NCBI GenBank assembly: GCA_963700285.1
Contig: CAVOXA010000001.1
Span: 736,001-800,000, forward strand
Length of the DNA: 64,000 bases
Reading direction: 5' to 3'
Source: an uncultured Chloroflexia bacterium
Lineage (GTDB): Bacteria; Chloroflexota; Anaerolineae; JAAYZQ01
Shown here: positions 5,800-24,149 of the stretch, one piece after another
Layout of the letters: each line of letters opens with the position of its first letter
How positions within the stretch are numbered: the stretch's first letter is position 1
Notes under the pieces: generated by a model
The model's database searches: none
What the model saw: the letters and a program-made list of their open reading frames with translations, nothing else
Told to the model about the DNA's origin: nothing
Translations under genes and position numbers: made by a program

Positions 5800-6597
5800 A
5801 TGACGAGCGAACTCCGGCTGATCCCGCCTCAAAAAGTAACCCTCGTTGAGTCAATTATTGAACAGATCGTGACGCAGATCCGCGACGGAAACCTGGAGCC
5901 CAATGACCGGCTGCCTTCTGAACGCCAGCTCATCGATATGCTGGGCGTGGGCCGTTCTTCGGTGCGAGAGGCCCTGCAAGGGTTATCGGCAATGGGCCTG
6001 GTAGAGATACGGCCCGGTGAAGGGACTTTCGTGAAGGGACTCAACCCTGGTGAGGATCTGCTCAGCCGGGACATCCGAACCCTCTCGATGGGCTTGCAGA
6101 AAGAGATGCGCAAGTACCTGAATCAGGCCCGGCTGGCTCTGGAAACTGGGATCTTGACGGTCGCCGCTGAGGTGACCACCGAGAAGAGTGGGGCGTGCAT
6201 CCGGCAGGCGCTTGCCGACTATGAACGTGGTCTCGAGGCTGATCCGGCGAATCTGGATTGGGCCGTGCACGATAGGCTTCATCTGTCCATGGCCGAGGCG
6301 ACGGGCAATGGTTTTCTCGTGGATATGCTGCAGAGGCTCATAGAACTCGTTCCCTACTCGTTGCGGGACATGAACGCTCCTTACGCCGACCCGCAGGAGA
6401 TATGGGAGTTCCATGAGACCTGGCGGATCATCCATGGGAGGCTATGCGACGCCGTGCTGAGGGGGGATGCCCAATCTGCCTGCAAGTGGATGAGGCGGCA
6501 TTCCAAGTACGAGAGCATCAACATCGAGCGTGATTATGGGCACCTGTCCGCCCGCGCCCAGCAAGAGTACCAAGAGAGCATCAGGAGGATGGCCTAG
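5800..6597 (+). CDS. FadR/GntR family transcriptional regulator
   Basis: LPSERQL...GVGRSSVREAL...GEGTFV HTH; FCD-type C-terminus. Confidence 0.92.
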   Translation: MTSELRLIPPQKVTLVESIIEQIVTQIRDGNLEPNDRLPSERQLIDMLGVGRSSVREALQGLSAMGLVEIRPGEGTFVKGLNPGEDLLSRDIRTLSMGLQKEMRKYLNQARLALETGILTVAAEVTTEKSGACIRQALADYERGLEADPANLDWAVHDRLHLSMAEATGNGFLVDMLQRLIELVPYSLRDMNAPYADPQEIWEFHETWRIIHGRLCDAVLRGDAQSACKWMRRHSKYESINIERDYGHLSARAQQEYQESIRRMA

Positions 6598-6598
6598 C

Positions 6599-7708
6599 AT
6601 GAAAAAGCACGAGATCCCTACGCCAGCCTTGGTTGTAGACATTGACAAGCTGAGGCACAACATCGAAGACATGGCCCAACGGGCACGGAAGGCTGGTATG
6701 GCGCTGCGCCCCCATGTCAAGACCCACAAGACTCCTGCCATAACCCACATGCAGATCAAAGCGGGAGCGGACGGCATCGTCTGCGCCAAACTGGGCGAGG
6801 CAGAGGTCATGGCCGCGGCGGGCGTCGACGATATCCTGGTGTGTTATCCTATCGTTGGTCCTGACAAGATCGAGCGCTTGCTCAACCTGGCACGATGGGT
6901 GGACAGAGTCTCCACGACAGTCGATACGCGGACCGCTGCCCAGGCCCTGAGCGACGCGGCTGTGGCAAGGGGCCAGCGCCTGGATGTGTTGGTCGAAGTT
7001 GACGTGGGCTACAAGCGTACGGGCATCGCGCCGGGACAATCACTCCTGGAGTTGATCCGGGGTATCGTAGAATCGATGCCCGGCTTGCGCTACAAGGGGT
7101 TGATGTATATTGCCGGCGGCCTAATCAAGCACATGGAACCGGAAAAGCAGTTGGCCGAGGAGCAAGCTGCCATCGACATCGTTCTGGATGCTGCCAGCCT
7201 GTTGCGAGCCCACGGTATTGAGACGGAGGTAGTCAGCGGCGGTACGACGCCAGGCGCCCGGTACATGGCGGATCTCGATGGGGTCACGGAATACCGCGTC
7301 GGCTGCTACGTCTTTGGCGACATGAAATATGCCGACTTGGGTGCCCTTGCCCGGGAGCAGTTGGCTCTGACCATCTTGACTACCGTCGTCTCTGTCCCGT
7401 CGGTTCCGGCGCCGGGCCACTTTGTCGTGGATGCCGGGTCCAAGACGCTGACGCACAGCGGGGCCATGACCTCGCCAGGGTATGGAACCTTTGTGCAGCA
7501 TCCAGAGTGGGCGGTGAATGTACCGAGTGAGGAGCACGGTGGCGTGTACCTGCCGCTGGGTGCCAAGCCACCGGCCATCGGCACCAAACTGGACATCTAT
7601 CCCAACTATGTGTCCGACGTGGTGAACCTAGCTGACGAGCTGTGGGTGGTGCAGGGTGATGAGGTCATTGCGGTGTGGGATATCCTGGCTCGGGGCAAGA
7701 GGGTGTAG
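6599..7708 (+). CDS. D-threonine aldolase / DSD1-like PLP enzyme (alanine racemase fold)
   Basis: PTPALVVD, LRPHVKTHK, CAKLGEAE, VEVDVGYKRTG, SGGTTP, DAGSKTL, SEEHG motifs. Confidence 0.85.
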   Translation: MKKHEIPTPALVVDIDKLRHNIEDMAQRARKAGMALRPHVKTHKTPAITHMQIKAGADGIVCAKLGEAEVMAAAGVDDILVCYPIVGPDKIERLLNLARWVDRVSTTVDTRTAAQALSDAAVARGQRLDVLVEVDVGYKRTGIAPGQSLLELIRGIVESMPGLRYKGLMYIAGGLIKHMEPEKQLAEEQAAIDIVLDAASLLRAHGIETEVVSGGTTPGARYMADLDGVTEYRVGCYVFGDMKYADLGALAREQLALTILTTVVSVPSVPAPGHFVVDAGSKTLTHSGAMTSPGYGTFVQHPEWAVNVPSEEHGGVYLPLGAKPPAIGTKLDIYPNYVSDVVNLADELWVVQGDEVIAVWDILARGKRV

Positions 7709-7716
7709 GGGGCACA

Positions 7717-8769
7717 ATGAGTCTTGGAGAGAATATGATCGATCTGCGAAGTGATACGGTTACCAAGCCTACGAAAGCGATGCGACGGGCAATGTACGAC
7801 GCCGAGGTAGCCGACGATACCTACGACGGCGATCCGACAGTAAACCGGCTGCAGGAGCTGGCGGCTGAGAAGACGGGAAAGGAATCAGCACTGTTCGTCG
7901 TATCGGGCACGATGGGCAACCTCCTAGGCGTACTGATCAACACCCGGCCCGGTCAGGAGGTGATCCTGGGCGACGAATCGCACCAATTCCTGTGGGAGGT
8001 GGGCGGCATCGCCCGAGTGGCCAACTGTGTGACGCACACGGTGCCCTTTCACAGGGGCTATCTCGACCCGACAGAGGTGGAAGCGGCGATCCGGCCCGCT
8101 GCCAGAGAGGCAACGACCACCGGCATGATCTGCCTCGAGAACACTAGCAACATTGGCGGCGGTCTGGTGATCCCGCCCGAGCACATGGCCGGGATCTCGG
8201 ACGTGGCCAAGAGGCACGGGCTGCCCATTCACATGGATGGCGCCCGCTTTTTTAATGCGATCGCCGCCTCGGGCCGCCCGGCCTCGGATTTTACCCGGAA
8301 CGTGGACACGCTGGCCTTCTGCCTGTCCAAGGGATTGGGGGCGCCTTTTGGCGGGCTGTTGTGTGGCAGCGCCGATCTTGTCGAGCGGGCGATTCCATTT
8401 CGACAGATGCTTGGTGGCGGCATGCGCCAGGCGGGCGTAATGGCCGCAGCGGGCATTGTGGCCCTGGAGACAGGCATTGATAGGCTGGCGGAGGATCACG
8501 CCAATGCCAAGAAGCTGGCTCTGGGCCTGGCAGAGCTCTTTCCCGGATGCTGTGATCCGGATAATGTGGAAACCAATCTATTCCACATCGACGTTGCCAT
8601 GCTCGGCATGGGGGGGCAGGAACTGGCGGATCATTTGGCAACCGAGGGCGTTCTGGTGTTCGCCGGGGAGCCGCGCATGCGATTTGCTACGCATGCCATG
8701 GTTAGCTCGGAGGACATCGACCAAGTCCTGGAGGTCTTTGCCCAGTTGCCAACGCGATCTGCCACATGA
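7717..8769 (+). CDS. ltaE: low-specificity L-threonine aldolase-like protein
   Basis: DLRSDTVT, SGTMGN, HMDGAR, CLSKGLGAP, GGGMRQAG motifs. Confidence 0.88.
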   Translation: MSLGENMIDLRSDTVTKPTKAMRRAMYDAEVADDTYDGDPTVNRLQELAAEKTGKESALFVVSGTMGNLLGVLINTRPGQEVILGDESHQFLWEVGGIARVANCVTHTVPFHRGYLDPTEVEAAIRPAAREATTTGMICLENTSNIGGGLVIPPEHMAGISDVAKRHGLPIHMDGARFFNAIAASGRPASDFTRNVDTLAFCLSKGLGAPFGGLLCGSADLVERAIPFRQMLGGGMRQAGVMAAAGIVALETGIDRLAEDHANAKKLALGLAELFPGCCDPDNVETNLFHIDVAMLGMGGQELADHLATEGVLVFAGEPRMRFATHAMVSSEDIDQVLEVFAQLPTRSAT

Positions 8770-9027: not shown

Positions 9028-10509
9028 ATGAAAGCATTGAGAATTCTGTTTCCAGTCCTGGTCGTAGCCTCCCTGCTGGTGGGCTGCGCAGCGACGCCCG
9101 AGGTCGTGGAAAAAACCGTCGTCCAGACCGTTGTGGTCTCGGAGGAGAAGGTCGTCGAGAAGCCGGTGGTCCAGACGGTCGTCGTCTCGGAAGAGAAAGT
9201 CGTGGAAAAAGAGGTGGTGGTCACCCAGGTGGTCGAGGTGGAGAAGGTGGTCGAGGTTACCTCAACCCCGGCGCCCAAGATGATCGAAGGTGGCCCGCTG
9301 GAGGTGGGTGTGCTCTGGGAGGCGCCAGCGCCATGGGGCCTGTTGGCAGAGGAAGTTGGTACCTCACTCGAAGAGGATTTCCCCGGAACCAAAATGTCCT
9401 ATACCTTTAACAACACGCCTGCCCGCCCGGCCATCGAGCTCCGCTGGCTGAGGGGCGATCCCCTCGATGTTGACTTTATCTTTGAGGGGACGGATCCCGG
9501 TTCCTGGACGTGGGTGGAGGAGGGCTACCTCCTGGACCTGACGCCCTACATGGAGGACGAGGTCCAACCCGGCGTCAAGTGGAAAGATCTTCTCCTGCCG
9601 ATCACCTACAGTTCGGCCAAATACAAGGGCGACTTTTATGCCGCGCCGGAGCAGATCTTTATCTGGTTGCTGCACTACAACAAGAAGCAGTTCGACGAGT
9701 GGGGCCTAGAGCCGCCCCAGACCTGGGACGACATGCTGGCCCTGTGTGAGGATATCAAAGCCCAGGGTGTGGCGCCCATTGCCCTTTCGGGACCGATCAA
9801 CTTTTACGTGGGCATGTGGTACGATTCCCTGGTCCAGCGTATCGTGGGTGCCGACAAGGTCATGCAGGTGCTGTACGGCGAGGGCAAGGTAGCCGATGAC
9901 CCCGGCTTCCTCGAGGCAGCGCAAGAGTTCGAAAAGCTGTTCAAGAGCGGGTGTGTCATCGATGGCTTTGAGGGCATCGGCTTTACCGAAGTGCAGGTCG
10001 AGTTCTTCCAAGACAAGGCGGCCATGATCCTGATGGGGAGCTGGCTCGTCACCGAGATGAAGGACTCGATCCCGCCGGACTTTGAGCTAGGCATCTCCAC
10101 CTTCCCGTCCGTGGAAGGGGGGGCGGGGCAGCAGGACGCCATGTTCGGCCGGACGCTGAGCTGGTCCATTGCTGCGGGGACCGACAATCCGGACCTGGCT
10201 GTCGAGTACCTGAAACGCTTCACCACCGACCCGGCGGTCATCGAGAAACGGGCCATGGAGCTGGGGCAGTTGGTCCCGTTGAAGGGGGCACCGGCACCTC
10301 CTGGTATCCCGGGAGCTGACGCAGTGCTGGAGCAGGCGGCGAATGTACGGTTTATCCTCTACAACTATGGCGCGACCTCTGATACAGGGCTTTCTTCTGC
10401 CTGGTACGACCCCCAGGTGGAACTGGCCTTTGGCAAGATCACGCCTGAGGAAATGATCGCCAAGATCGACAAGAACCTGGAGGAGTATCGCGCCCTCAAG
10501 GGCGAATAG
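9028..10509 (+). CDS. carbohydrate-type ABC transporter substrate-binding lipoprotein
   Basis: Lipobox LVGC; LHYNKKQF, PPQTWDDM and AAMILMGSW motifs; SD AGGAGG. Confidence 0.9.
   Translation: MKALRILFPVLVVASLLVGCAATPEVVEKTVVQTVVVSEEKVVEKPVVQTVVVSEEKVVEKEVVVTQVVEVEKVVEVTSTPAPKMIEGGPLEVGVLWEAPAPWGLLAEEVGTSLEEDFPGTKMSYTFNNTPARPAIELRWLRGDPLDVDFIFEGTDPGSWTWVEEGYLLDLTPYMEDEVQPGVKWKDLLLPITYSSAKYKGDFYAAPEQIFIWLLHYNKKQFDEWGLEPPQTWDDMLALCEDIKAQGVAPIALSGPINFYVGMWYDSLVQRIVGADKVMQVLYGEGKVADDPGFLEAAQEFEKLFKSGCVIDGFEGIGFTEVQVEFFQDKAAMILMGSWLVTEMKDSIPPDFELGISTFPSVEGGAGQQDAMFGRTLSWSIAAGTDNPDLAVEYLKRFTTDPAVIEKRAMELGQLVPLKGAPAPPGIPGADAVLEQAANVRFILYNYGATSDTGLSSAWYDPQVELAFGKITPEEMIAKIDKNLEEYRALKGE
9103..9258 (+). 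repeat. coding V/E/K-rich linker repeat (16-aa unit x2 plus degenerate copies)
   Basis: VVEKTVVQTVVVSEEK / VVEKPVVQTVVVSEEK / VVEKEVVVTQVVEVEKVVEV. Confidence 0.85.
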
Positions 10510-10539
10510 TCGTTCAGCGATAGGGTCACTCGATGATTT

Positions 10540-10569
10540 AGGGGGCGGGGAGTTTGCCTCCTCGCCCCT
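10540..10569 (+). other. intercistronic stem-loop after the substrate-binding protein gene
   Basis: AGGGGGCGGGGAG...CTCCTCGCCCCT inverted repeat without a U-tract. Confidence 0.55.
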
Positions 10570-10633: not shown

Positions 10634-11518
10634 ATGCTTCAGAAGGCGCGCCGCAAGCTGATTATCCCCTTTCTTCTGCCTGCGTTTCTCCTATACACGC
10701 TTCTGTACGCCTACCCGATTGTTCAGACCTTCCTGTGGTCCTTCACCGGCTGGAGCGGACATACAGTCAAACGCCCCTTCGCCGGCTTGCGGAATTATGC
10801 CTCGCTCCTGATCGATCGCCGTTTTCATGGCGCTCTTCAGAATACGCTGCTCTATGCCGTGGTTGGCGGGATCCTTCTCTTCGTTTTCGGGCTTATCCTG
10901 GCCTGGGGCCTCAGCCAGCCGATCCGCTTCCGTCGCATTTTCCGCTTCATCGTGCTAGCACCCATGGTTATCTCGGTAGCGGTGACCGGCGTAATGTGGC
11001 GAATGATCTTTGAGCCCAACCTTGGCGTGTTGAACAATGTCCTGCGGGCCATCAACCTGGACCAACTGGCCCTGCCCTGGATGGGCGACACCCGCACTGC
11101 GCTGCCGGCTATCATCATCGCCTCCGTTTGGTGGCAGATGGGCATGTGGGTCCTGCTGCTCCTGGCCGGGCTGGAGCGCATCCCCGCCGACCTGCAGGAC
11201 GCGGCCAAGGTGGACGGGGCCAACGAGCTGCAGGTATTCTGGCACGTGACCCTGCCCCTCCTGTGGGACGTCGTCCGGACTCTGATGGTGGTGTGGATCA
11301 TCCTCGCCCTCCAGGTGTTCGGTATCGTACTGGTTATGGCGCCCTGGGGAGGGGTGAGCGGCGCGACACAGGTGGCAGCGACTTATATCTACTACACCGC
11401 CTTTAACGACTTCAAGTGGGCCTATGCTTCGGCGGTGGCGACCGTGGTCTTGCTCATCATCTTTGGCCTGAGCATGGTCTCCATGCGGGCGATGCGCCGG
11501 GAAACGATCGAGTTTTGA
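10634..11518 (+). CDS. carbohydrate ABC transporter permease
   Basis: AGLERIPADLQDAAKVDGA (EAA motif); TM segments. Confidence 0.93.
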   Translation: MLQKARRKLIIPFLLPAFLLYTLLYAYPIVQTFLWSFTGWSGHTVKRPFAGLRNYASLLIDRRFHGALQNTLLYAVVGGILLFVFGLILAWGLSQPIRFRRIFRFIVLAPMVISVAVTGVMWRMIFEPNLGVLNNVLRAINLDQLALPWMGDTRTALPAIIIASVWWQMGMWVLLLLAGLERIPADLQDAAKVDGANELQVFWHVTLPLLWDVVRTLMVVWIILALQVFGIVLVMAPWGGVSGATQVAATYIYYTAFNDFKWAYASAVATVVLLIIFGLSMVSMRAMRRETIEF

Positions 11519-11532
11519 GGGAGCATTCACCT

Positions 11533-12405
11533 ATGTCTACATCGGAAAGAACTGTCAGGAAAGGCCGGCACAGAGGTCGAATCGATCCCACCCGCATTTT
11601 TATCTACCTGGTGCTCGGTATCTATAGCCTGACCACCGTGCTGGCCTTCGGTTGGGTTTTCCTGACTTCGTTAAAGACTACGCCCGAGTTTCTCAGCAAC
11701 AGCCCGTGGTCGCTGCCTGAGAAAATCAACCCGATTAACTATGTCAACGCCTGGCGCTATGCCAATTTCGGCCGCTACTTTGCCAATACACTGCTTGCTG
11801 CGACGGTGGGTGGTGGTGTGTCGGTTGCTATTTCGACTACTGCCGCCTATGCCCTGTCCCGCATCCGGTTTCCCTTCAGCCGGGTGGTTGGCGCTTACTT
11901 TCTGATCGGGTACATGGTTCCTCTCATGCTGTCCGTCATCCCCATCTACTTCATGCTGCCCAAGCTGGGTCTGGGAACTGGGCTGGCGCCCCTGATCCTG
12001 ATCTACATCGCTTCCGGTATTCCGTTCAACACTTTCGTCCTGGGCAGTTATCTGGCCTCTCTGCCGTATGAGATGGAGGAGGCGGCGGCCATTGATGGCG
12101 CATCCCCGTTCCGAACCTTTTGGCAGATTATGGTCCCGCTGGCCATGCCGGGCCTCGTGTCCGTGTTTTTTATCAATTTCCTGAGCCTGTGGAACGAGTT
12201 CTTCCTGGCGCTGCTGTTCCTGCGCGACGAGAACATGACACTGGCCGTTGGCCTATTCGGCCTGTTGCGCCGGGCCGAGTATTCGGGCACCTGGGTCGAG
12301 GTGTTCGCAGGGATGATCATCAGCGTCGCTCCGGTGTTGATCATCTTTGCCTTGCTGCAGCAGCGGATCACCAAGGGTTTGACCTTCGGCGCGATCAAGG
12401 GCTAG
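11533..12405 (+). CDS. carbohydrate ABC transporter permease
   Basis: EEAAAIDGASPFRTFWQI, WNEFF, C-terminal GAIKG. Confidence 0.93.
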   Translation: MSTSERTVRKGRHRGRIDPTRIFIYLVLGIYSLTTVLAFGWVFLTSLKTTPEFLSNSPWSLPEKINPINYVNAWRYANFGRYFANTLLAATVGGGVSVAISTTAAYALSRIRFPFSRVVGAYFLIGYMVPLMLSVIPIYFMLPKLGLGTGLAPLILIYIASGIPFNTFVLGSYLASLPYEMEEAAAIDGASPFRTFWQIMVPLAMPGLVSVFFINFLSLWNEFFLALLFLRDENMTLAVGLFGLLRRAEYSGTWVEVFAGMIISVAPVLIIFALLQQRITKGLTFGAIKG

Positions 12406-12434
12406 CGGGCATGATCGAGGAGCGAGGGGAGCCG

Positions 12435-13499
12435 ATGGCTGCTCTGGCACGCCATCGGGCCTTCTGGCGAGGCGAGCAGACCGACCGGCCCCTGGCCGGT
12501 GCGTACCTGGGGGAATACGAGGTCGCCGACATCTATCTTGTGGCCGGCGACGGCGATCTCCTTGAGCCGCAACGGCTTGTCCCTGAACGCTTCCTTGAGG
12601 TATTCGTCCAGCGGTGTGAGACCAGCGAAGGGCTGGGCCAGGACCTGTTCAGGCCGTTGTCGCCCCTGTACTGTGTGCCCTGGCTGGAGGCCATCCTGGG
12701 CTGTCCGGTTCGGGTGCATTCCCAGGCTTGTTGGGCTGAGGCCCTCCTGGACGAGGACGAGCCGTTGGAGACCCTACAGCCCGGCTGGATTGAGGCTTGG
12801 TTGGAGGCGGCAATCTCATTCGTACGGTGCTTGGCCGGTAAGGCCGGCTGCCAGCCACCTCACGCCGGGCGCTTTCCGGTGGCCGGACTTTTTCTGCGCG
12901 GCCCGGCAGATGTGGTCGCGGCGATGCTGGGCATCGAGCGCATGTGTTATGAGTTTTACGACCACCCACAGCAGATCCACCGCCTGGCCCGTCTGTCCGC
13001 CGAGGTCTGGATCGAGGCAACGCGCCTGATGTACCAGCACATGCCATCGTTCTACGGGGGCTTTGTCGATCCGGGGCGCTGGCTCTATTCCCCGGCGCGC
13101 TGCGCCTACAGTTCAGAGGATACTAGTGCCATGATATCGTCTGACCTGTATCGCGAGTTCTTTCTGCCCTACAACCAGATGATGGTCAATGCCTTTCCCT
13201 ACGGCTATGTCCACCGCCACTCTGCTTCAGCGCACAATCTCCTGGCGCTCCTGGACTTGGAAACTACCTGGGCCATCGAGGTAACCATGGATCCGGGCGG
13301 GCCCACCGTACCGGAGATGCTGCCCCTCTTCCGGCGGATCCAGGAGAAAGGACGGCCGTTGATCGTGTTTGGTTTGGATGAGGAAAGGGACGTAGCTGCC
13401 CTTGTCGCAGGACTGTCGCCGCGAGGGCTGTGTGTGGTTGTCCAGGCAGACGCCGAGGAAGATGCCCGGGCTCTGCTGTCGGTGGTGAAGGGAGAGTAG
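12435..13499 (+). CDS. uroporphyrinogen decarboxylase (URO-D/MtaA)-like protein
   Basis: AFWRGEQTDRPL, RGPADVVAAMLG, SEDTSAMISSDLYREFFLP, VHRHS, LSPRGL patterns. Confidence 0.65.
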   Translation: MAALARHRAFWRGEQTDRPLAGAYLGEYEVADIYLVAGDGDLLEPQRLVPERFLEVFVQRCETSEGLGQDLFRPLSPLYCVPWLEAILGCPVRVHSQACWAEALLDEDEPLETLQPGWIEAWLEAAISFVRCLAGKAGCQPPHAGRFPVAGLFLRGPADVVAAMLGIERMCYEFYDHPQQIHRLARLSAEVWIEATRLMYQHMPSFYGGFVDPGRWLYSPARCAYSSEDTSAMISSDLYREFFLPYNQMMVNAFPYGYVHRHSASAHNLLALLDLETTWAIEVTMDPGGPTVPEMLPLFRRIQEKGRPLIVFGLDEERDVAALVAGLSPRGLCVVVQADAEEDARALLSVVKGE

Positions 13500-13542: not shown

Positions 13543-14310
13543 ATGTTGAGCTTTTTTGATTGCAATGCGGCCATCGGACGCTGGAAGCACCCACCATTGG
13601 GTGGCTATGAGACGGCTGGCGAACTGGAGGCCGTCCTGGACTACCTGGCTGTGGAACGCGCCGTCGTGTATCATGCCCAGGCCCACGAGGTCCACCCGAC
13701 AGTGGGCAATGGCCTGCTGATGGAATCACTGGCCGGCCGCGAGCGACTGTTGCCCAGTTGGGTCATCTTTCCTCACTTTACCGGCGAGATGCCCGAGCCT
13801 GAGGTCCTGGTAGGCGACATGCTGGAGCAGGGCGTGCGCGTCGCCCGGCTGATGCCCGGCTATGATGGCCATCGCTTCAGTCTGGAACCGTGGAGCGCCG
13901 GCCTGCTGCTGAAGGAGCTGGCTGCGCGTCGTCTGCCGGTGCTCATCGACTTTATGTTCTTCCGCCGTGACGACCCGGACTGGAAGCTGCTCCACGATCT
14001 GTGCTACCGCTATCCTGCGCTGCCCATCATTCTGACTGGCTGGTCGGGCCTGGCCAGCCGGTCCTTCTATCCACTGTGCCAGGCCTGTCCCAATCTACAC
14101 CTGGACACTTCTGGCTATGCGTTGTTTCGAGGCTTGGAGGCATTTTGCCGGGAGGTCGGCGCCCGCCAATTGCTGTACGGATCGGGCCTGCCGTACCGGG
14201 CGGCGGGCACGGCGCTGACGACCATCACCCATGCCATGGTCAGCGATGAAGAGAAATCGCTGATCGCCCACGGCAACCTGGGAAGGCTGCTGGCGGAGGT
14301 GGTCACATGA
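13543..14310 (+). CDS. amidohydrolase family protein (Amidohydro_2) with degenerate metal site
   Basis: PNLHLDTS, LLYGSGLP, IAHGNL; DCNA replaces the DxHxH motif. Confidence 0.75.
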   Translation: MLSFFDCNAAIGRWKHPPLGGYETAGELEAVLDYLAVERAVVYHAQAHEVHPTVGNGLLMESLAGRERLLPSWVIFPHFTGEMPEPEVLVGDMLEQGVRVARLMPGYDGHRFSLEPWSAGLLLKELAARRLPVLIDFMFFRRDDPDWKLLHDLCYRYPALPIILTGWSGLASRSFYPLCQACPNLHLDTSGYALFRGLEAFCREVGARQLLYGSGLPYRAAGTALTTITHAMVSDEEKSLIAHGNLGRLLAEVVT

Positions 14311-16386: not shown

Positions 16387-18003
16387 GTGTTTGATACCGT
16401 CATAGCGGGAGGCACACTGGTCGATGGTACAGGCGCGCCGGGGCTCCGGGCCGACGTGGGCACTATCGGCGGGCGCATCGCCGCTGTCGGCGATCTGACG
16501 GTGGGGAACGCGGTGGAGCGGATCGAGGCCGGGGGGCACGTGGTCTGTCCCGGCTTCATCGATGCACACACCCACTCAGATCTCACCCCACTGCTCGACG
16601 GCCGCTGTGCCAGCAAGGTACGGCAAGGCGTGACCACCGAACTGGTGGGACACTGCGGCTTTTCGGCCTTTCCCCTGGTCAAGGGGACGCCCCAGAAGCG
16701 GGCAGAGCTGGATCGTGCCGTGATGTTGGCGACCGCTGGCGGGCGTGCTATCGAGGCTGATTGGTCCGACTGTGCCGGTTATTTGGAAGCGATGGAACGG
16801 GCAAAGCCTGCTTTCAACATGGCTACGCTGGTCGGCAACGGCACGATCCGGTCTGCCATCATGGGCTATGACAACCGCCCGCCCGATACTGATGAGCTGA
16901 AGGCCATGCGCAGGCAGGTAGCGCTGGCCATGGAGCAGGGCGCTTTTGGGCTGTCCTCCGGCCTGACCCTGTATCCAAGCAGTGTGGCCCAGGCTGAAGA
17001 ATTGGTGGCGCTGTGCGAGGAACTGGTCCACTGGGGTGGCCTCTACGATTCCCACACGCGTCACCTGGCTGGCTGGCACTTCCGGTCAGTGGAGGAGGCC
17101 ATCGACACCGGCCAGCAGGCCGGGGTCGCTGTTCAGGTTGCTCATATCTGCCTCATCGATCCCCGTCACTGGGGTGAGGCGGCCCAACTGCTGGAGATCA
17201 TTGAACGAGCTCGTAGGGATGGCGTTGATGTCACCTACGACGCCTATCCTTATACCGCTGCTGGCTGCCCGTTCAGCGAGCTCATGCCCGAGTGGGTGCA
17301 GGATGGCGGGACCGAGGCGATGATCAGGCGGCTGTCCGACCCAGCGACGCGCCGGCAGGTGCTGACCGAGGCGGACACTACGTGGGGCAGTGGCATCCCC
17401 AGCCGGTGGGAGAAAGTAGTTATTGCCTGGGGCGGTCCACACGGCGACCCGTCTTGGACCGGCAGGTCGGTGGCAGAGCTGGGAGAAAAAGCAGGCAGTT
17501 CTCCCGAAGAGATGATGATCTCCATCGTCGTCCAGTCGCGCGACGTGGGCCTGATGGTTGTCCACAACCGCTTGGATCAGGACGTGGAGTGCTTTGTATC
17601 GCATCCGCTGGGTATGATCGGCTCTGACGGCGTCGCCGTTGCTGCCGATGGCCTGTGGGGCCAGGCGCCGGTCCACCCCCGCTTCTACGGAGCCTTCCCA
17701 CGTGTGCTGGCCCACTATGTCCGCGAGCGCGGGGCGATGACCCTGGAAGAGGCGATCCGCAAGATGACGTCGCTGCCTGCGGACCGGCTGGGATTGGGCG
17801 ACCGGGGACGGCTTCGGGAAGGCAAAGCCGCCGATCTGGTGATTCTGGATCCGGCTACGGTACAGGACCGGGCCACGTTTGAAGAGCCGCACCAGTACCC
17901 GGTGGGCATCACCCACGTGATGGTCAATGGCCAGTGGGTCGTGCGCGACGGCCAGCAGACCGATGCCCGGCCCGGACAGATTTTACGGTACCGTGGCGGC
18001 TAG
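16387..18003 (+). CDS. N-acyl-D-amino-acid deacylase (D-aminoacylase)
   Basis: PGFIDAHTHSD, QGVTTELVGHCG, YDAYPYTA, GSDG, HPRFYGAFPR, EEAIRKMT motifs. Confidence 0.92.
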   Translation: MFDTVIAGGTLVDGTGAPGLRADVGTIGGRIAAVGDLTVGNAVERIEAGGHVVCPGFIDAHTHSDLTPLLDGRCASKVRQGVTTELVGHCGFSAFPLVKGTPQKRAELDRAVMLATAGGRAIEADWSDCAGYLEAMERAKPAFNMATLVGNGTIRSAIMGYDNRPPDTDELKAMRRQVALAMEQGAFGLSSGLTLYPSSVAQAEELVALCEELVHWGGLYDSHTRHLAGWHFRSVEEAIDTGQQAGVAVQVAHICLIDPRHWGEAAQLLEIIERARRDGVDVTYDAYPYTAAGCPFSELMPEWVQDGGTEAMIRRLSDPATRRQVLTEADTTWGSGIPSRWEKVVIAWGGPHGDPSWTGRSVAELGEKAGSSPEEMMISIVVQSRDVGLMVVHNRLDQDVECFVSHPLGMIGSDGVAVAADGLWGQAPVHPRFYGAFPRVLAHYVRERGAMTLEEAIRKMTSLPADRLGLGDRGRLREGKAADLVILDPATVQDRATFEEPHQYPVGITHVMVNGQWVVRDGQQTDARPGQILRYRGG

Positions 18004-18117: not shown

Positions 18118-18909
18118 ATGATTGTAGATGCTCACGTACACTTGATGGAACCTGAGAAGGGGGCCGCAGGCTATGACTATCTTAAAAAGACCGGCGGCGC
18201 CTGGGGGCAGGTCTGGGATGCGGAGCGTGTCGTTGGGCTCCTTGATGAATGTGGGTTTGACAAAGCCATCGTTTTTACGGGGGCAGGGCTCTATCCCAAC
18301 GTAGATTACCGCTACTACAATGACAACCTAGCCCGCGAGGTGGGCCAGTTCTCCGACAGGCTCATCGGCTTTGGCTGTCTGGACCTGAAGGGCGATCCGG
18401 ACGCCGCCGCCGAGGTCCCGCGCCTGGTCGAAGGGTTGGGCCTGGTGGGGATCAAATTTCACCCCTGGCTGCAGGACTTCCCGGCGAACTCTGGCCTTCT
18501 CCGTCCGGTCTACGAACAGGCATCGTGCTATCACCTGCCCATCCTCTTTCACACCGGTACACCGCCCTACGCCCAACCGGCCCAGGTGGCGCAGTGGGCG
18601 GGCGAGTATCCCGACGTCCAGTTCATCATGGGCCACTTTGGCAAGCTGATCTGGCTCGACGCGGTCCGCGCTGCCCTGGAATACCCCAACGTTTATCTGG
18701 AGACGAGCGGGGCGCAGGTGGCGGATCTGGAGATCGCCGTGAGACTGCTGGGCGAGGAACGGATCGTCTTTGGCACGGACCTGCCGATCGGGGGAGCAGC
18801 CGCTGGGAAGTGGAACGTGGACAAGATCCGCGCCGCGCGGATCAGCGACCGCGCCAAGGAACGGATCCTGGGTCAGAATGTCCTGGATATTCTGGCACGG
18901 GTTGGTTAG
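18118..18909 (+). CDS. amidohydrolase family protein (Amidohydro_2)
   Basis: DAHVH, GIKFHP, LFHTGTP, MGHFG, YLETS, FGTDLP motifs. Confidence 0.9.
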   Translation: MIVDAHVHLMEPEKGAAGYDYLKKTGGAWGQVWDAERVVGLLDECGFDKAIVFTGAGLYPNVDYRYYNDNLAREVGQFSDRLIGFGCLDLKGDPDAAAEVPRLVEGLGLVGIKFHPWLQDFPANSGLLRPVYEQASCYHLPILFHTGTPPYAQPAQVAQWAGEYPDVQFIMGHFGKLIWLDAVRAALEYPNVYLETSGAQVADLEIAVRLLGEERIVFGTDLPIGGAAAGKWNVDKIRAARISDRAKERILGQNVLDILARVG

Positions 18910-19061
18910 GTCGTCCAAAGTTGAAGGGCAAGGTCCCAGCTTTTGACTCGGGCCAGGCCTGGATAGGGACCGCACCCAGGAATGCGTTCGCCCATCAGCG
19001 GAGGCTTTCGCCCATCAAGCGGGCAACTTGCCTGTAGGAGGTGAAAAGGGGGAGTGGAACG

Positions 19062-19820
19062 GTGATCGTCGATTCGCACGTGCACATTGGCACCACGGTA
19101 CACCATTTCGAACAGCTGGAAGCAACCGACGACGACATCCTGCGAGAGATGGATGCCCATGGCGTGGATATGGCCGTCCTGTGCCCGGCTGGCGCTGCCC
19201 TGGCGGTCCAAAATCGCCAGGGTAACGACTTGGTCGCTTCGGCTGTCCGGGCGCATCCCGACCGGTTTATCGGCCTGGGAACAGCCAATCCCTGGTACGG
19301 CGAGGCTGCGCTGGCCGAGCTGGACCGGGTCATTTACGGCCTGGGTCTGAGCGGCTTCAAGTTCCACTCGCTGGTCCAGGGATTCCACCTGAATGATCCG
19401 CTCCTGGTCTACCCCCTGGTGGAAAAGGCCATCGATCTGGATGTACCGGTCTATTTCCACTGTGGGACACCGATCATGGCCATGCCCTACAAGATCCAAG
19501 ATCTGGCCCGGCGCTACCCCAAGGCCAAGCTGATCATGGGCCACCGGGGCTGGGACTATCACTTTGACGTGATCCACGTCGAACAAAACTGCCCGGGGAT
19601 ATGGATCGAGACTTCCAAGTGTGAATACGTGAACCTGGAGCACTCTTACAGGATGGGAAATGTCGGAAGACTCCTGTATGGCTCCGATTATCCCATCAGT
19701 TCCATGGCGCCCGAGTTGTCCAAAGTCCGCCGTCTGGTGGGCTTGACTTCTGAGCACGAGTCTGCTATCTTGGGGCGCAACTGCCAACGCCTGTTTGAGC
19801 TAGAGGAATATGACAGATAA
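19062..19820 (+). CDS. amidohydrolase family protein (Amidohydro_2); alternative start at 19041
   Basis: DSHVH, GFKFH, FHCGTP, MGHRG, IETS, YGSDYP motifs. Confidence 0.88.
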   Translation: MIVDSHVHIGTTVHHFEQLEATDDDILREMDAHGVDMAVLCPAGAALAVQNRQGNDLVASAVRAHPDRFIGLGTANPWYGEAALAELDRVIYGLGLSGFKFHSLVQGFHLNDPLLVYPLVEKAIDLDVPVYFHCGTPIMAMPYKIQDLARRYPKAKLIMGHRGWDYHFDVIHVEQNCPGIWIETSKCEYVNLEHSYRMGNVGRLLYGSDYPISSMAPELSKVRRLVGLTSEHESAILGRNCQRLFELEEYDR

Positions 19821-20280
19821 GATACGCATCAAGGTCGATCGCCACGTGTGCAGCGGATGCCTGTCGTGCATGACTACCTGTTCCATGGCCAATGAATGGT
19901 ACGCCAGTCTTCCAGGGTCCCGGGTTCGGGTTGATCTGAGCCCCTTCGCCGACACCCACCGGATCACCCTCTGCCACCAGTGTGCTGCGACGTCCAGGTC
20001 GGAGGCCGCCTGCCTGCAAGCCTGCCCTGAGGGCGCGATCAGCCGCGATCCCGATGCCGGCCATCTGGTGGTGGACTATGGTCGGTGCACTGGCTGTAAG
20101 GCCTGCATTGAGGCCTGTCCCTTGAACGCCATGTTCTGGAATCCAATTTCGGAGCACGTGATCAAGTGCGAGCTGTGCGACGGCGACCCGCAATGCGTAC
20201 AGGCCTGTCCGACTGGCGCCCTGACGATCCGGGTCGTACCAGGCAGGAAAGCCATTGGAAAGCGCGAGCGAAACCGATGA
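19810..20280 (+). CDS. 4Fe-4S dicluster protein (AOR electron-transfer subunit)
   Basis: CSGCLSCMTTC, CHQC...CLQACP, CTGCKACIEACP, KCELC...CVQACPTGAL. Confidence 0.92.
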   Translation: MTDKIRIKVDRHVCSGCLSCMTTCSMANEWYASLPGSRVRVDLSPFADTHRITLCHQCAATSRSEAACLQACPEGAISRDPDAGHLVVDYGRCTGCKACIEACPLNAMFWNPISEHVIKCELCDGDPQCVQACPTGALTIRVVPGRKAIGKRERNR

Positions 20281-22268
20281 AGCGAAGCAATGGCTGGGTG
20301 GGCAAGATCCTGTGGGTCGACCTCAATGATCGGACAACGCGCACGCTGGATACGGCGGACTATGGCCCGGGCTATATCGGAGGACGCGGGATCGCCGCCC
20401 GCATCGCTTGGGACGCGATCCCACCAGGCGTTGGTGCGCTCGATCCGGAAAACCTGTTCATGGTCTTTACTGGACCGCTGAGTGGCACGACCGCTCCCTT
20501 TTCCGGACGGACCTCCATCTGCGGCCTGAGTCCGCAGGGGTGGCCCCAGGAGTGGTTCAGCCGCTCAAACGTCGGAGGGCATTGGGGTCCGTCACTAAAG
20601 TACGCGGGCTACGATGGGTTGGTGGTCGAGGGACAGGCCGATTCGCCTGTGACGCTGTGGATCACCGACGACAAGGTCGTGTTGCTGGACGCCGGTCACC
20701 TGTGGGGTATGGGTGTCATGGACACCCAACAGGCGCTCATGGGTGAACTGGGCAACGATATTCGAATCCTGACCATCGGACAGGCGGGTGAGAGGCTCAG
20801 CCGTATTGCCACGGTGGCCACGGAGACCAATTCGGCTGCCGGTCAAGGGGGCTTTGGCGCGGTCATGGGTTCCAAGAACCTCAAGGCCATCGCCGTGCGC
20901 GGCAGCGGGCCCGTCTACGTTGCCGAACCGGAGTTATTCCTGGCCCGATGCAAGGCGATCGCCGAGGAAGCTCGCACCGGTAGCCGTTTTGCCAATACTG
21001 AGCTGGACCCGGAGCGGGTGACTGGGTTTAAGCAGCGATGGCAGGCCTGCACCCAACAGTGTGGGATGCGTTGCGGCATGGTCTGCCGTTTCTACGGCGA
21101 GGTCAGGGGACCGGCTACCGGCGAGGTGCTCTCCGGCCAATTCCACTGCGTCTCAAACTTTTTCCCGGGCATACCCAATAGCTTTTACGACTGGGATCTG
21201 GGGTTCGAGGGGGCCTTTGAAGCCCGGCACCTGTCGGACAACTATGGTCTCAATCAGTGGGATCTGCTCCTGGGCATCATACCCTGGCTGCGGCTGTGCG
21301 GTCCGGCGCCCGCGGGAGCTGGGCTGGTGCGTGAGGTCAACGGCCGGGCCATCGACTTTGACGACCCGACCTTCTGGGCCCATCTCTTCCGAGTCATTGC
21401 CTACCGAGAGGGAATAGGCGATGCCCTGGCCGAGGGCGGCCGCCGGGCGCCAGCCCTGTTGGGCTATGGGCAGGAGCTGGCCGAGCCGTTGTTCACCGCA
21501 TGGGGCAGCGCCGGCCACTGGGATGGTCATGGAGACCGGGGCAACCGCATCGTCTATCCCTTCTGGCTGGCGCCGGCCGTGCAGTGGGCCGTGGACGTCC
21601 GGGATCCTTTTAGCAGCGCCCACGGGTATACGGCGCTGACCATGCATTGGTCGCCATTCCTCAACGATGAAGGCTTGTCCTGGGACACTATCAAGGCGGT
21701 GGGCCAGCGTATCTATGGCACCGAGCAAGCCGTGGATCCCATGAGTGATTATGAGGCCAAAGAGATCCCGGCCGTGTGGCACGGACATCGCAGCGTGATG
21801 AAGGACTCGGTGACGGTGGACGACAATGTTTTTCCTATGATCTTGAGTACCAACAGTACGGATGGGCTGGCCCGTGCGGGTGATATGCTGGGTCCCGATT
21901 TTGAATATCACCTCTTTAGGTCAGCGACGGGCGCTGGCCTGACGCGTGAGGAATTTGAGCTGGCTTGCGAGCGCGTGTTCAACCTGGAACGCGCCATCCA
22001 AGTGCGGAACTTTGGGCGGCAGCGGGGCGATGACGAGACCGTGATCCCCCAGTTCGAGCGCGAGGAGTGGTGGGAGAATCCCCTCATTGGCGAAAAGAGG
22101 CGACTGGACCGGACCAAGTTCATCCCGCTCCTGGAAAGGTACTACCGGCTGCGGGGATGGGATCTGATGCAGGGGCGACCTACCTGGTCCAAGCTGCGGG
22201 AGCTGGGGCTGGACGATGTGGCCAAGGAACTGGCCCAGGCTGACCTTATCGAGAGCGATACGATTTAA
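20277..22268 (+). CDS. aldehyde:ferredoxin oxidoreductase (AOR/WOR family)
   Basis: GKILWVDL, IGGRG, LKYAGYDG, GFGAVMGSKNLKAIAVRG, Cys cluster, REGIGDALAEG, YYRLRGWD. Confidence 0.92.
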   Translation: MKRSNGWVGKILWVDLNDRTTRTLDTADYGPGYIGGRGIAARIAWDAIPPGVGALDPENLFMVFTGPLSGTTAPFSGRTSICGLSPQGWPQEWFSRSNVGGHWGPSLKYAGYDGLVVEGQADSPVTLWITDDKVVLLDAGHLWGMGVMDTQQALMGELGNDIRILTIGQAGERLSRIATVATETNSAAGQGGFGAVMGSKNLKAIAVRGSGPVYVAEPELFLARCKAIAEEARTGSRFANTELDPERVTGFKQRWQACTQQCGMRCGMVCRFYGEVRGPATGEVLSGQFHCVSNFFPGIPNSFYDWDLGFEGAFEARHLSDNYGLNQWDLLLGIIPWLRLCGPAPAGAGLVREVNGRAIDFDDPTFWAHLFRVIAYREGIGDALAEGGRRAPALLGYGQELAEPLFTAWGSAGHWDGHGDRGNRIVYPFWLAPAVQWAVDVRDPFSSAHGYTALTMHWSPFLNDEGLSWDTIKAVGQRIYGTEQAVDPMSDYEAKEIPAVWHGHRSVMKDSVTVDDNVFPMILSTNSTDGLARAGDMLGPDFEYHLFRSATGAGLTREEFELACERVFNLERAIQVRNFGRQRGDDETVIPQFEREEWWENPLIGEKRRLDRTKFIPLLERYYRLRGWDLMQGRPTWSKLRELGLDDVAKELAQADLIESDTI

Positions 22269-22427
22269 CCAAAGGGACACAGAGGACGCGGAGTCATTTT
22301 GGGGCTATTGAGAGGACCTTGGTTCTTCTGCACTTTAGCGGCAAATACTGGGGATCCAAGGTAGACTGGACAAGGCGCCGGTAACAGAGACTAGCGTCTG
22401 TTGTGCACAAGTGCAAGAGGAGCAGGA

Positions 22428-23252
22428 ATGATGTTTGAGAAGATAGATCCCTTTGTGTTGGCTAGCGGTTTTCAGTCCCCCGAAGGGCCTAGTTTTGACC
22501 GGGAAGGTACCCTGCATTTTGTGGACTGGGACGCGCAGGTGGTCTACCGTGTCACTTTGGATGGCAAGGTGTCCCCCTTTGTCAATACGGCTGGCGTGCC
22601 GACGGGTTCCAAGTTCCACCGGAACGGCCATCTGTTCGTGGCTGATGGGGATCGAGGCATCCTGGATGTCTCGGCTGAGGGGAAGGTGCGCGTGGTCGCT
22701 TCCGGCTGGGAAGGACGGCGCTTTCGTGGCCCCAATGACCTGGTTTTCGCCGCCAACGGCGATCTCTATTTCACCGATCCCAAGGGCTCCGATCCTGAGC
22801 ACCCCATCGGCAACGTCTTCCTCATGCGCCAGGATGGCCATGTCGAGCGCTTTGCCGGAGGATTCCAATTCCCCAATGGTATTGTCCTCTCTGATGATGG
22901 CCGGACGCTGTATTTGGGTGAAACCTACCCCAATCACGTTCTGGCCTTCGACCTGGACGAACAAGGCCACGAGCAGGCCCGGCGAGTATTTGCCAGGCTG
23001 GAGGGCGGCCTGGGGCCCGATGGCATGGCCTTTGGACGAGACGGCAACTTGTATGTGGCCCATTATGGTAAGGGGGCCGTAGCCGTGATCGATCCTGGGG
23101 GCAGGGTGATCGCGGAACTGCCGGTTGGGGGCATGAACCCAACCAACGTCGCTTTCTGGGAGTCCAGCCTGTTCGTCACCGAAGTGGAAAAGGGCCAAGT
23201 CGTGCGGCTGGACATTGGCGTTGAGGGTCAAGTGCTGTATGGCCTCACCTGA
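22428..23252 (+). CDS. SMP-30/gluconolactonase/LRE family protein
   Basis: PEGP, GPNDL, YFTDP, FPNGI, PDGM, PTNVAF motifs. Confidence 0.92.
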   Translation: MMFEKIDPFVLASGFQSPEGPSFDREGTLHFVDWDAQVVYRVTLDGKVSPFVNTAGVPTGSKFHRNGHLFVADGDRGILDVSAEGKVRVVASGWEGRRFRGPNDLVFAANGDLYFTDPKGSDPEHPIGNVFLMRQDGHVERFAGGFQFPNGIVLSDDGRTLYLGETYPNHVLAFDLDEQGHEQARRVFARLEGGLGPDGMAFGRDGNLYVAHYGKGAVAVIDPGGRVIAELPVGGMNPTNVAFWESSLFVTEVEKGQVVRLDIGVEGQVLYGLT

Positions 23253-23336
23253 CCCCTTTTCTCTTGTCCCAGCAAGTTGGGAACTCCCAGGCTGGATCGT
23301 GCAAACTGTTCGGGCACGGAAAGCTGAGGCTGTGAC

Positions 23337-24149
23337 ATGAAGCGTCTCGAAGGGAAGGTTGCGCTGATAACCGGCGCCTCGCGGGGCATCGGCCGCGGGA
23401 TCGCGCTGTGCCTGGCAGCTGAGGGGGCAGATATCGTTGTCAACTACCGGTCTCATGGCGATGAGGCGCGAGAGGTAGCCAACTGCATCCAGCAGATGGG
23501 TTGCCGCAGCCTGGTCTGCCGTGGCGATGTAGCTGAGCGGGACGCCGTCGTAGAGATGTTTGCCAAAGCCGTGGAGCATTATGGCCGCATCGACATCGTA
23601 GTGGCCAATGCCGGGATCAACATTCCAGGCTCCGTACTGGAGGCCGACTGGCAGAGCGTGCTGCGCGTCATCCAGGTCAGCCAGTTTGGCGTATTTCACA
23701 CGGCTCAGCTTGGGGCCCAACAGATGGTGAGACAGGCGTCGAGCGGCCATAGCGGAGGTAAGATCATCCTTGTCGGGTCCATCCACGAGCAGCTTGCGGT
23801 CCCCAGCAGCGCGGCGTACAATATGGCCAAGGCGGCGGTGGGCCACCTGGCCAGGACTATGGCTCTGGAGCTGGCGCCCTATCGGATCAACGTCAACATA
23901 GTCGCCCCAGGCCGCATCGACACTCCATCGACGCGTGGCTTTCTGGAGGGGAAGCGGTTGGAGGAAGCAAACCGGCATATTCCGTGGGGCCGGGTGGGGA
24001 CACCGGAGGAGATTGGCAAGGCCGTGGCCTACCTGGCCAGTGACGACGCCGACTATGTGACCGGAGCGACGTTGGTCATCGATGGCGGTTTTTCCATCAA
24101 CCTAGATCTGAGGATAGGGGAGTCGGACGTCTGGGGGAAACAAGATTAA
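23337..24149 (+). CDS. SDR oxidoreductase (glucose-1-dehydrogenase-like)
   Basis: TGASRGIG, NAG, SIHE, YNMAK, PWGRVG motifs. Confidence 0.9.
   Translation: MKRLEGKVALITGASRGIGRGIALCLAAEGADIVVNYRSHGDEAREVANCIQQMGCRSLVCRGDVAERDAVVEMFAKAVEHYGRIDIVVANAGINIPGSVLEADWQSVLRVIQVSQFGVFHTAQLGAQQMVRQASSGHSGGKIILVGSIHEQLAVPSSAAYNMAKAAVGHLARTMALELAPYRINVNIVAPGRIDTPSTRGFLEGKRLEEANRHIPWGRVGTPEEIGKAVAYLASDDADYVTGATLVIDGGFSINLDLRIGESDVWGKQD

Follow-up and report, generated by a model that had tools for sequence, protein, structure and literature searches.

In a 64,000-nucleotide stretch of the genome of an uncultured Chloroflexia bacterium (hereafter the window; G000:C1:736001-800000 of a 7.05 Mb assembly whose kin are labelled Anaerolineae/Chloroflexota), we found a cluster of 17 genes (5800-24149) that is a genuine, intact and conserved catabolic unit assembled from known families. 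Its core contains a fold-type III pyridoxal phosphate (PLP) enzyme of the D-serine dehydratase/D-threonine aldolase (DSD1) family in which both metal ligands are replaced, and the next gene encodes an L-threonine aldolase. We propose, with a probability of roughly 35%, a serial route of deacylation, C-alpha epimerisation by the metal-free PLP enzyme and splitting by the L-allo-type aldolase into glycine and an aldehyde. The substrate would most likely belong to the amino-sugar acids or their conjugates.

A fold-type III PLP enzyme without the metal site of its family

Alignment with the D-threonine aldolase (DTA) structure 4v15 (AxDTA) showed that the window protein carries Tyr337 in place of His347, Ser339 in place of Asp349 and Ile171 in place of Tyr187. 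His347 and Asp349 are described as the sole protein ligands of the essential Mn, kept in the 19 DTAs compared, and the dehydratase has His/Cys at these positions (PMC4401734; this paper and those cited below are drawn on from part of their text). The replacements are shared by a clade, which we defined as the 97 of 120 listed homologues with at least 55% identity, the other 23 being the outgroup. Among the clade proteins covering the site, Tyr337 is found in 95/95, Ser339 in 94/95 and Asp340 in 95/95, and the stacking position (AxDTA Tyr187, window 171) is Met or Ile in 96/97; the outgroup has His/Cys at the metal site in 22/23, and the distant loci that cover it have His in 154/175. The base His193 is kept in the window protein, yet in just 27/97 of the clade. 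In a midpoint-rooted FastTree of 234 sequences, which sampled roughly a third of the close proteins and none of the characterised enzymes, the clade was monophyletic (38/38 tips, support 1.0).

PLP Lys41 is present in 88/88 covering proteins, and Arg140, Arg233 and Glu311-His313 are also kept in the clade. A clade-specific His286 (87/97) lies together with Lys41 and Arg140 on the list of predicted dimer interface residues. Because the PLP residues are kept, the clade is monophyletic and the dN/dS of the gene is 0.07, the protein reads as a working enzyme under purifying selection rather than a decaying one. The predicted model (pLDDT 97) has the DTA fold (TM 0.92); among solved structures AxDTA comes nearest (Z 47.6, rmsd 1.4, 357 aligned residues), with dehydratases tying within about 1.5 Z. 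A homodimer was predicted with a score of 0.84 (best control 0.00; contacts agreeing by at least 97% between runs; pLDDT at least 94), a mark reached by 20/30 solved pairs and 1/23 single chains, so that the pass may reflect likeness to solved dimers.

Compared with the DSD1-family structures (D-threonine aldolase, 4v15; D-serine dehydratase, 3anu; D-threo-3-hydroxyaspartate dehydratase, 3wqc; BhcC, 6qkb), the clade shares the fold-III barrel and beta domain (TM 0.89-0.92, 27-36% identity), the PLP lysine, the carboxylate Arg and a predicted head-to-tail dimer. It nevertheless stands apart as a separate clade, in which Tyr-x-Ser replaces both the His-x-Asp ligands of DTA and the His-x-Cys site of the dehydratases, the stacking aromatic residue has become Met/Ile and His193 is not conserved. 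We therefore rejected the identity as a D-threonine aldolase suggested in the first-pass annotation, since neither the two metal ligands nor the residue that stacks on the ring is retained, and likewise that of a metal-dependent D-serine/hydroxyaspartate dehydratase, whose His-x-Cys site is replaced. Since the metal site that the DTA family needs is lost, the enzyme likely does another job. The fold-III alanine racemases (Z 24-28) are similar in being metal-free, in having Arg at the pyridine nitrogen and in forming dimers with partner-completed active sites, but their identity to the window protein is 13-20%, an equivalent of their His166 is absent and an equivalent of their second base Tyr265 was not identified.

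A conserved natural Tyr-x-Ser clade must use a chemistry other than the metal activation of the beta-hydroxyl seen in characterised DSD1 enzymes. It would allow the interconversion of aldolase, dehydratase and racemase activities on fold III to be tested directly, and could serve as a biocatalyst for beta-hydroxy amino acids. A Tyr-x-Ser DSD1 enzyme was not found described in the open-access main texts searched.

A second DSD1-family clade has Tyr for the metal His and keeps the Asp (Tyr-x-Asp; monophyletic, 20/20, support 0.998). Its 20 loci (L187, L154, L149, L107, L101, L102, L174, L175 and others) often have deacylase-type neighbours, and the metal His of the family seems to have been lost twice. 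Another DSD1-family gene (L248:13050-14165, G028:C56) has Asp-x-Asn at the metal site and is clustered with genes for a distant Cys-type tungsten oxidoreductase (WOR), an iron-sulfur (FeS) protein, GntR, a short-chain dehydrogenase (SDR) and transketolase.

The conserved core and its exchangeable parts

The L-threonine aldolase belongs to the Thermotoga L-allo family, and the earlier label of an L-type PLP aldolase-like enzyme is borne out by its match to 1jg8 (Table 1) and by intact catalytic residues. It shares Lys199, His83, His166, Asp168, Arg171 and Arg316 (1jg8 numbering) with the T. maritima L-allo-threonine aldolase, and differs from it at Tyr87, which is Trp in 6/6 orthologues, and at His125, which is gone in 4/6 (the window and three of the five others). 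The substrate pocket is likely altered. His125 is non-essential in E. coli or Aeromonas mutants, and the family favours L-allo-threonine about 150- to 1400-fold (PMC4761611).

The long-form N-acyl-D-amino acid deacylase belongs to a family (D-aminoacylases, subtype V amidohydrolases) that liberates D-amino acids (PMC12017989), and keeps the Cys/His/His metal site and the catalytic Asp (Cys90, His223, His253 and Asp414). Its match to D-aminoacylase is stronger than that to OngB (Table 1). Its carboxylate anchors, mapped via 1m7j, retain Tyr287 and Arg432, with Cys255 for the Lys and Gly293 for the Ser. On an indirect mapping of OngB residues via the same A. faecalis enzyme, the polyol positions Glu226, Ser290 and Ser292 correspond to Leu227, Ala292 and Cys294, and Gln298 is unmappable (insertion).

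OngB is the deacetylase of the ong pathway of Pseudoalteromonas, an oxidise-deacylate-deaminate route for chitin-derived GlcNAc1A with a fold-III deaminase (OngC) and a kinase (KdgK) and without an aldolase (PMC9537276, PMC12017989). Both systems have a D-aminoacylase-family enzyme, a fold-III PLP enzyme, a transporter and a regulator, and the N-acetyl amino-sugar acid is handled in ong without prior phosphorylation. In contrast to ong, the window cluster has no kinase, RidA or hexosaminidase, has L-threonine aldolase in its core, encodes a deacylase without equivalents of OngB Lys254, Glu226 and Ser290-292, and uses a CUT1 ABC transporter and GntR where ong has an SSS transporter and RpiR. 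It falls outside the definition of an ong cluster (four or more ong homologues, with KdgK, RidA or OngA among them), and the deacylase and fold-III families alone are common. The gene combination was not found described in the open-access main texts searched; the oxidise-deacylate-deaminate logic for an N-acetyl amino-sugar acid is already in PMC9537276, and to that extent the amino-sugar idea has been published.

Families, strand and stops in the cluster agree with the first-pass description of a co-oriented, frameshift-free and kinase-free set: all 17 genes lie on the plus strand, each open reading frame (ORF) translates with a single terminal stop, the Pfam/NCBIfam assignments match the earlier family list and none of the 17 is a kinase. 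The families are GntR-FCD; Ala_racemase_N with D-ser_dehydrat; Beta_elim_lyase; a solute-binding protein (SBP) and two permeases; URO-D-like; four Amidohydro_2; Peptidase_M19; Amidohydro_3; 4Fe-4S; AFOR; SGL lactonase; and SDR. The many overlaps reported earlier come down to 3/16 junctions, with gaps of 1-14 nt at five more; the biggest intergenic gap (258 nt) lies ahead of the SBP gene (9028). The cluster is more than a chance grouping. The whole set of 17 is syntenic in G263, which belongs to the same genus (identity 86-95%), and the dN/dS of the G000 cluster genes is 0.07-0.19 (11/11 tested). Two genes flanking the cluster are frameshifted in the window and intact in G263: a class III aminotransferase gene (2142-3411, plus strand), split by a frameshift that may be an assembly indel or mark a pseudogene, and a B12-binding radical SAM gene (24223-25571, minus strand), each a single frame in G263.

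Beyond this genus the cluster recurs in part. Searches of 401 genomes of the class, which scored three to five candidates per genome, detected relatives of the fold-III gene (at least 59% identity) in 4/401 genomes including G000; they were also found in 3/23 genomes of the family, in G418 and on five metagenome contigs. A gntR gene lies 5' of the PLP gene in 8/9 other records, and the L-aldolase gene lies 3' of it in 7/7 other records with DNA there. Deacylase orthologues (at least 58%) mark the same four class genomes as the PLP clade and were identified in G263, G328, G234 and L120; aldolase orthologues occur in those four class genomes and in G326, where the aldolase gene stands alone. In G263 the intact deacylase gene is followed by a short second copy of part of its 3' end (L032:12098-12202). 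Two further genomes have 52% deacylase relatives beside canonical aldehyde oxidoreductases (AORs): in L263:7105-11398 (G041) and L264:5430-9725 (G084) a canonical AOR, the deacylase relative and an SDR stand in a row without PLP genes.

The functions that recur in other Anaerolineae are GntR, the fold-III PLP enzyme, L-threonine aldolase, the CUT1 ABC transporter and the D-aminoacylase-like protein. The URO-D-like protein, the four small amidohydrolases and the M19 dipeptidase are accessory, and the last five were found in G263 only. The FeS-oxidoreductase-lactonase module is present in G263, G328 and G418 (there on a second contig) and absent from the G234 cluster; the SDR is present in G263, G234 and G418 and not in the G328 cluster. 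Because the G328 cluster has no SDR and that of G234 no AOR module, we read the 17 genes as five core functions to which hydrolase and redox parts are added exchangeably, rather than as a single fixed pathway; the co-conservation that the first-pass annotation had called for holds for the core and for the synteny with G263.

Other accessories in G328 are an S9 peptidase, OCD/mu-crystallin, an M14-like protein and a canonical AOR. G234 has Gfo and a deacetylase-like protein, which is unrelated to the M14-like protein of G328, and has Gfo and SDR dehydrogenases where the oxidoreductase and lactonase otherwise sit. S9, M14 and M19 proteins are taken here to have their usual peptidase activities. 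Zinc-carboxypeptidase-like motifs were recognised by eye in three proteins without a Pfam/NCBIfam match (L035:9015-10130 in G328, L120:19006-20118 and L281:3-950), which are 53-76% identical. Paralogue sets in G000 comprise 12-13 WOR large subunits, nine D-aminoacylase-like loci, 40 SDR loci and several OCD and Gfo genes.

The proposed route and its alternatives

If the deacylase is D-specific and the aldolase L-specific, as their families suggest, a stereochemical link between them is needed, and the simplest candidate would be the metal-free PLP enzyme, which adjoins the aldolase in all readable records. From the genes, residues and conservation described above we infer the following reactions, their order and their substrate class. 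The cell would import a polyhydroxy D-amino acid in N-acylated or peptide-linked form and deacylate it, the metal-free fold-III enzyme would invert its alpha-carbon (D-threo to L-allo), and the aldolase would cleave the epimer into glycine and an aldehyde. L-allo is the C-alpha epimer of D-threo, which would fit the preferences of deacylase and aldolase alike. Loss of the Lewis acid should disfavour elimination and retro-aldol cleavage, and would therefore leave C-alpha exchange. The glycine would enter the glycine cleavage system, whose GcvT was matched in 5/5 genomes and above the cut-off in four, and the FeS/Cys-type oxidoreductase and lactonase would most likely provide or remove a sugar-like aldehyde, an aldose passing via its lactone to the acid. 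In favour of this route are the tight coupling of the three genes (the aldolase 3' of the PLP gene in all seven records, the deacylase in the same four class genomes) and the sugar-acid context of relatives of the oxidoreductase, of the SBP and of one clade member. DSD1-family enzymes are also described as accepting D-threo and L-erythro isomers alike (PMC8071972).

Several observations weigh against epimerisation. A second catalytic base was not located from the sequence, His286 is Asp, Asn or Tyr in 10/97 clade proteins, and Tyr337 at the former metal place could engage the beta-OH and so favour elimination or retro-aldol cleavage. Acceptance of both isomers by dehydratases may stem from flipped binding, not from two bases. 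The deacylase keeps neither the carboxylate Lys nor the mappable OngB polyol contacts, and its orthologue was not found in G418, a split metagenome-assembled genome (MAG) in which the best match is a 37% protein. DUF1537 tetronate kinase, a candidate sink for a C4 product, was not found in the five genomes (89-95% complete), and the window, like G328 and L120, has accessories of peptidase type. Co-occurrence is overstated, since the genomes that carry the cluster are kin rather than independent. Finally, G328 and L120 have an OCD-type imine reductase close to the gene, and L122 has a dehydratase and RraA aldolase 5' of it; both would suit a deaminase.

Such a deaminase is a close alternative, only slightly less probable than the epimerase: the PLP enzyme would be a metal-independent beta-eliminating lyase in the position of OngC, with Tyr337 as the acid for the leaving group (OH or substituted O/N), and would yield a 2-oxo or imino acid. 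The L-aldolase would then handle the other epimer, or work synthetically, from glycine and an aldehyde, ahead of the lyase, as in the beta-hydroxyaspartate cycle. Elimination is the default of the DSD1 family, and the OCD/mu-crystallin reductase, the enolase-family dehydratase with RraA and the KDPG aldolase (Eda) detected in 5/5 genomes would fit the products. On the other hand, the characterised eliminases of the family, as described in PMC4401734 and PMC8071972, are metal-dependent, RidA and KDG kinase are absent from the window cluster, unlike in ong, and a parallel role leaves the L-aldolase that follows in 7/7 records unexplained. Because Eda also occurs in G190, a genome without the cluster, the GcvT and Eda sinks do not discriminate between the readings.

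The peptidase genes bear on the substrate more than on the chemistry. One reading that we consider unlikely is that the substrates, rather than being sugars, come from detrital biomass as N-blocked peptides or as other amides of D- and beta-hydroxy amino acids. The sugar-type transporter and redox genes would then be exchangeable add-ons to a GntR-PLP-aldolase-deacylase core; this idea is compatible with epimerase chemistry. It would account for the S9 peptidase and M14-like protein of G328 and L120, the M14-like protein of G418, M19 in the window, the swapped SBP of G234, the nine D-aminoacylase-like loci of G000 and the 52% deacylase relatives that adjoin canonical AORs. It would not account for a transporter that is CUT1-type wherever reached and never peptide-type, for the recurrence of lactonase, SDR and Gfo, or for SBP relatives that lie in amino-sugar/sugar-acid-type islands.

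The first-pass annotation had proposed instead that D- and L-threonine aldolases act in parallel on glucosaminate and mannosaminate, formed from N-acetylglucosamine (GlcNAc) and N-acetylmannosamine (ManNAc) via SDR, lactonase and deacylase, with an AOR oxidising the aldehyde. AxDTA is indeed the nearest fold (Z 47.6), the best NCBIfam match of the SBP is NgcE (133 bits, cut-off 400), a metal-free retro-aldolase exists in the form of an engineered alanine racemase, and the G328 and G418 clusters contain a second, canonical AOR. We nonetheless consider this scheme very unlikely, since the metal ligands, His193 (in most of the clade) and the stacking His of the engineered enzyme are all replaced, the cluster oxidoreductase is Cys-type and none of 46 aldehydes was turned over by the large subunit of a YdhV-clade enzyme in partly purified form (PMC13328260), the deacylase departs from the OngB residues, and the SDR is gone from the G328 cluster. 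Against GlcNAc/ManNAc as substrates stand, besides the missing polyol contacts and tetronate kinase, the presence of NagA in G000, G263 and G234 (3/5 genomes), and the result that GH20 was not found in G000, G263 and G328, though G234 and G418 have it; neither plain GlcNAc nor chitin is a favoured substrate. What stands of the original interpretation is a kinase-free, co-conserved and probably co-regulated unit with sugar-acid-type neighbours; the DTA label, the AOR label and the GlcNAc/ManNAc substrates are not supported.

In its fullest form, which we regard as quite unlikely, the serial route would make this the first metal-free C-alpha epimerase of the DSD1 family, in an ATP-free path for D-amino-sugar acids via an L-allo aldolase to glycine and a tetrose, with a soluble Cys-ligated tungsten enzyme and lactonase oxidising aldoses to low-potential ferredoxin. 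A YdhV-like enzyme would then also gain its first assigned role. The cluster hints at a way in which organic nitrogen that is N-acylated and D-configured may be exploited by these bacteria.

Oxidoreductase, transport, expression and accessory genes

The W/Mo-pterin oxidoreductase scores 302 bits against YdhV, below the cut-off of 868. Of the second-shell residues of AOR sensu stricto (Thr243, catalytic Glu313, Tyr427 and His448), it lacks the Glu313 motif, kept by 11/11 other WOR ORFs of G000, and the Thr243 segment, and its His448 equivalent appears kept. Cys291 is invariant in 26/26 aligned relatives (28/30 loci pairwise), and on a sequence-only comparison its spacing to the pterin motif equals that of BamB Cys322 within one residue, after an insertion. 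In the text available from PMC12096430, Cys at the Glu313 position is confined to YdhV and BamB. We therefore rejected a canonical AOR, the second-shell Glu313 motif being replaced and the Thr243 segment absent, and aldehyde oxidation, the role assumed earlier, is not established for this YdhV/BamB-type protein. Foldseek did not rank BamB above AOR/FOR (ties, TM 0.70-0.73), and a fragment search gave no alignment to BamB. The Cys, the second-shell loss and an FeS small subunit are features in common with YdhV/BamB and the Class II WorLS (PMC12096430, PMC13328260), whereas the low YdhV score, the adjoining lactonase and the absence of membrane or bifurcating subunits from the cluster, where the FeS subunit is the sole partner, set it apart.

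The subfamily was detected in 31/401 class genomes, and among the ten closest neighbourhoods several lie beside GH36, FAH, UxaE, transaldolase, ROK or sugar ABC genes and others do not. Cys-type tungsten oxidoreductases other than BamB are without assigned function in the parts of PMC12096430 and PMC13328260 drawn on, and here one has a readable context beside a lactonase. For this protein and the fold-III enzyme, annotation by family name (AOR, D-threonine aldolase, alanine racemase) misleads. A MobA-like NTP transferase is encoded 3.6 kb 3' of the oxidoreductase gene (25857-26495, plus strand); a check for TupA with PF12849 was too broad to interpret. The SDR had no match among solved structures at E 1e-52.

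Table 1. Features of the cluster and its upstream region (window coordinates)
Feature	Coordinates	Strand	Status	Basis or remark
Sigma-70-type promoter, TTGACA-17-TATACT, extended -10	5477..5505	+		11/12 consensus positions; best of 7 sites over 19 kb
Palindrome at predicted transcription start, FadR-type putative operator	5513..5525	.		TGGT-N3-ACCA
GntR/FadR regulator	5800..6597	+	core	Pfam GntR+FCD
Fold-type III PLP enzyme, DSD1/D-threonine-aldolase family, without metal site (Tyr337, Ser339)	6599..7708	+	core	alignments, tree, model
L-threonine aldolase, Thermotoga L-allo family	7717..8769 (start may be 7735)	+	core	1jg8 E 8e-96
CUT1 solute-binding lipoprotein	9028..10509	+	core position	Pfam/NCBIfam; 24%-identical replacement in G234
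ABC permease 1	10634..11518	+		Pfam/NCBIfam
ABC permease 2	11533..12405	+		Pfam/NCBIfam
URO-D-like protein	12411..13499	+	accessory (G263, G418)	Pfam weak, E 4e-4, below cut-off
Amidohydro_2 pseudoenzyme, overlaps next gene	13543..14310	+	accessory	metal His and terminal Asp gone; dN/dS 0.19
Amidohydro_2 protein	14307..15224	+	accessory	Pfam
M19 dipeptidase-like protein	15256..16380	+	accessory	Pfam
Long-form N-acyl-D-amino acid deacylase	16387..18003	+	core	1m7j E 2e-85, OngB 7e-64
Amidohydro_2 protein	18118..18909	+	accessory	Pfam
Amidohydro_2 protein	19041..19820	+	accessory	Pfam
4Fe-4S small subunit (WorS-like)	19810..20280	+		Pfam/NCBIfam; overlaps large-subunit gene
W/Mo-pterin oxidoreductase large subunit, Cys-type (YdhV/BamB-like)	20277..22268	+		best NCBIfam YdhV
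SMP-30/gluconolactonase	22428..23252	+		Pfam SGL; after oxidoreductase in G263, G328, G418
SDR, broad glucose-1-dehydrogenase-like subfamily	23337..24149	+		NF005559 222.6 bits, cut-off 215

The -10 box is found 5' of gntR in 7/7 aligned loci and TTGACA in 6/7. Directly after the -10 box all seven have the palindrome, which resembles what we take to be the FadR operator consensus. With this common promoter and putative operator ahead of the core, the unit is probably co-regulated. The leader between promoter and gntR (about 280 nt, 5526-5799) is kept in G263 and much shorter in the other five loci. Genome-wide, the operator pattern occurs at chance level (23 versus 21 in the control), as it does across five genomes, so a regulon defined by it was rejected; the single identical site elsewhere in G000 has no clear link. 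A terminator scan was uninformative (16 versus 12.3 expected).

In four RNA libraries labelled sediment metagenome, 32 contigs with at least 99% identity fell on the cluster, mostly over the SBP gene, and three on the next 19 kb; near-identical contigs of the SBP gene occur in 4/4 runs. These contigs are a weak hint of cluster expression: the runs were picked with cluster words, the likeness cut-offs are unequal (92 versus 95), some matches are short and partial and a DNA origin is possible. They cannot show a single transcript or rank genes, and the uncovered parts prove nothing. Gaps of 114-258 nt within the cluster could harbour inner promoters.

Of the sugar-type ABC transporter described earlier, the SBP and two permeases are present and the ATPase gene lies outside the cluster, MalK-type genes being found elsewhere in 5/5 genomes tested. 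The SBP relatives carry generic sugar labels, and a plasmid search gave no SBP match. In a Paenibacillus genome, a 49% SBP relative has genes for amidohydrolase, Gfo, aminotransferase, dehydratase and lactonase as its neighbours.

The six amidohydrolase-superfamily proteins noted earlier all matched their families, except that one (13543-14310) is without the metal histidines and the terminal Asp; these are also gone in its G263 and L154 counterparts. A pseudoenzyme followed by an intact paralogue is encoded both in the window (13543-15224) and at an unrelated locus (L154:1372-2831), and the pair is possibly a dead-plus-live heterodimer. A structure search with the second amidohydrolase matched just one uncharacterised protein. 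The URO-D-like protein had Atlas features at 0.97 to URO-D clusters, and the Atlas matches gave family-level names only. In L187 a 64% relative of the M19 protein is encoded next to an SDR and a further DSD1 protein of the Tyr type.

A 50 kb island in another genome (L274-L276, G409:C58:28000-80000) contains two related SBP/permease sets, many Amidohydro_2 and Gfo genes, DegT aminotransferases, three enolase-family dehydratases, creatininase-like genes and a lactonase. Finally, an SBP 72% identical to that of the cluster (P0124) is assigned by its label to the MAG of a Nitrososphaerales archaeon, for which transfer and mis-binning are both possible.

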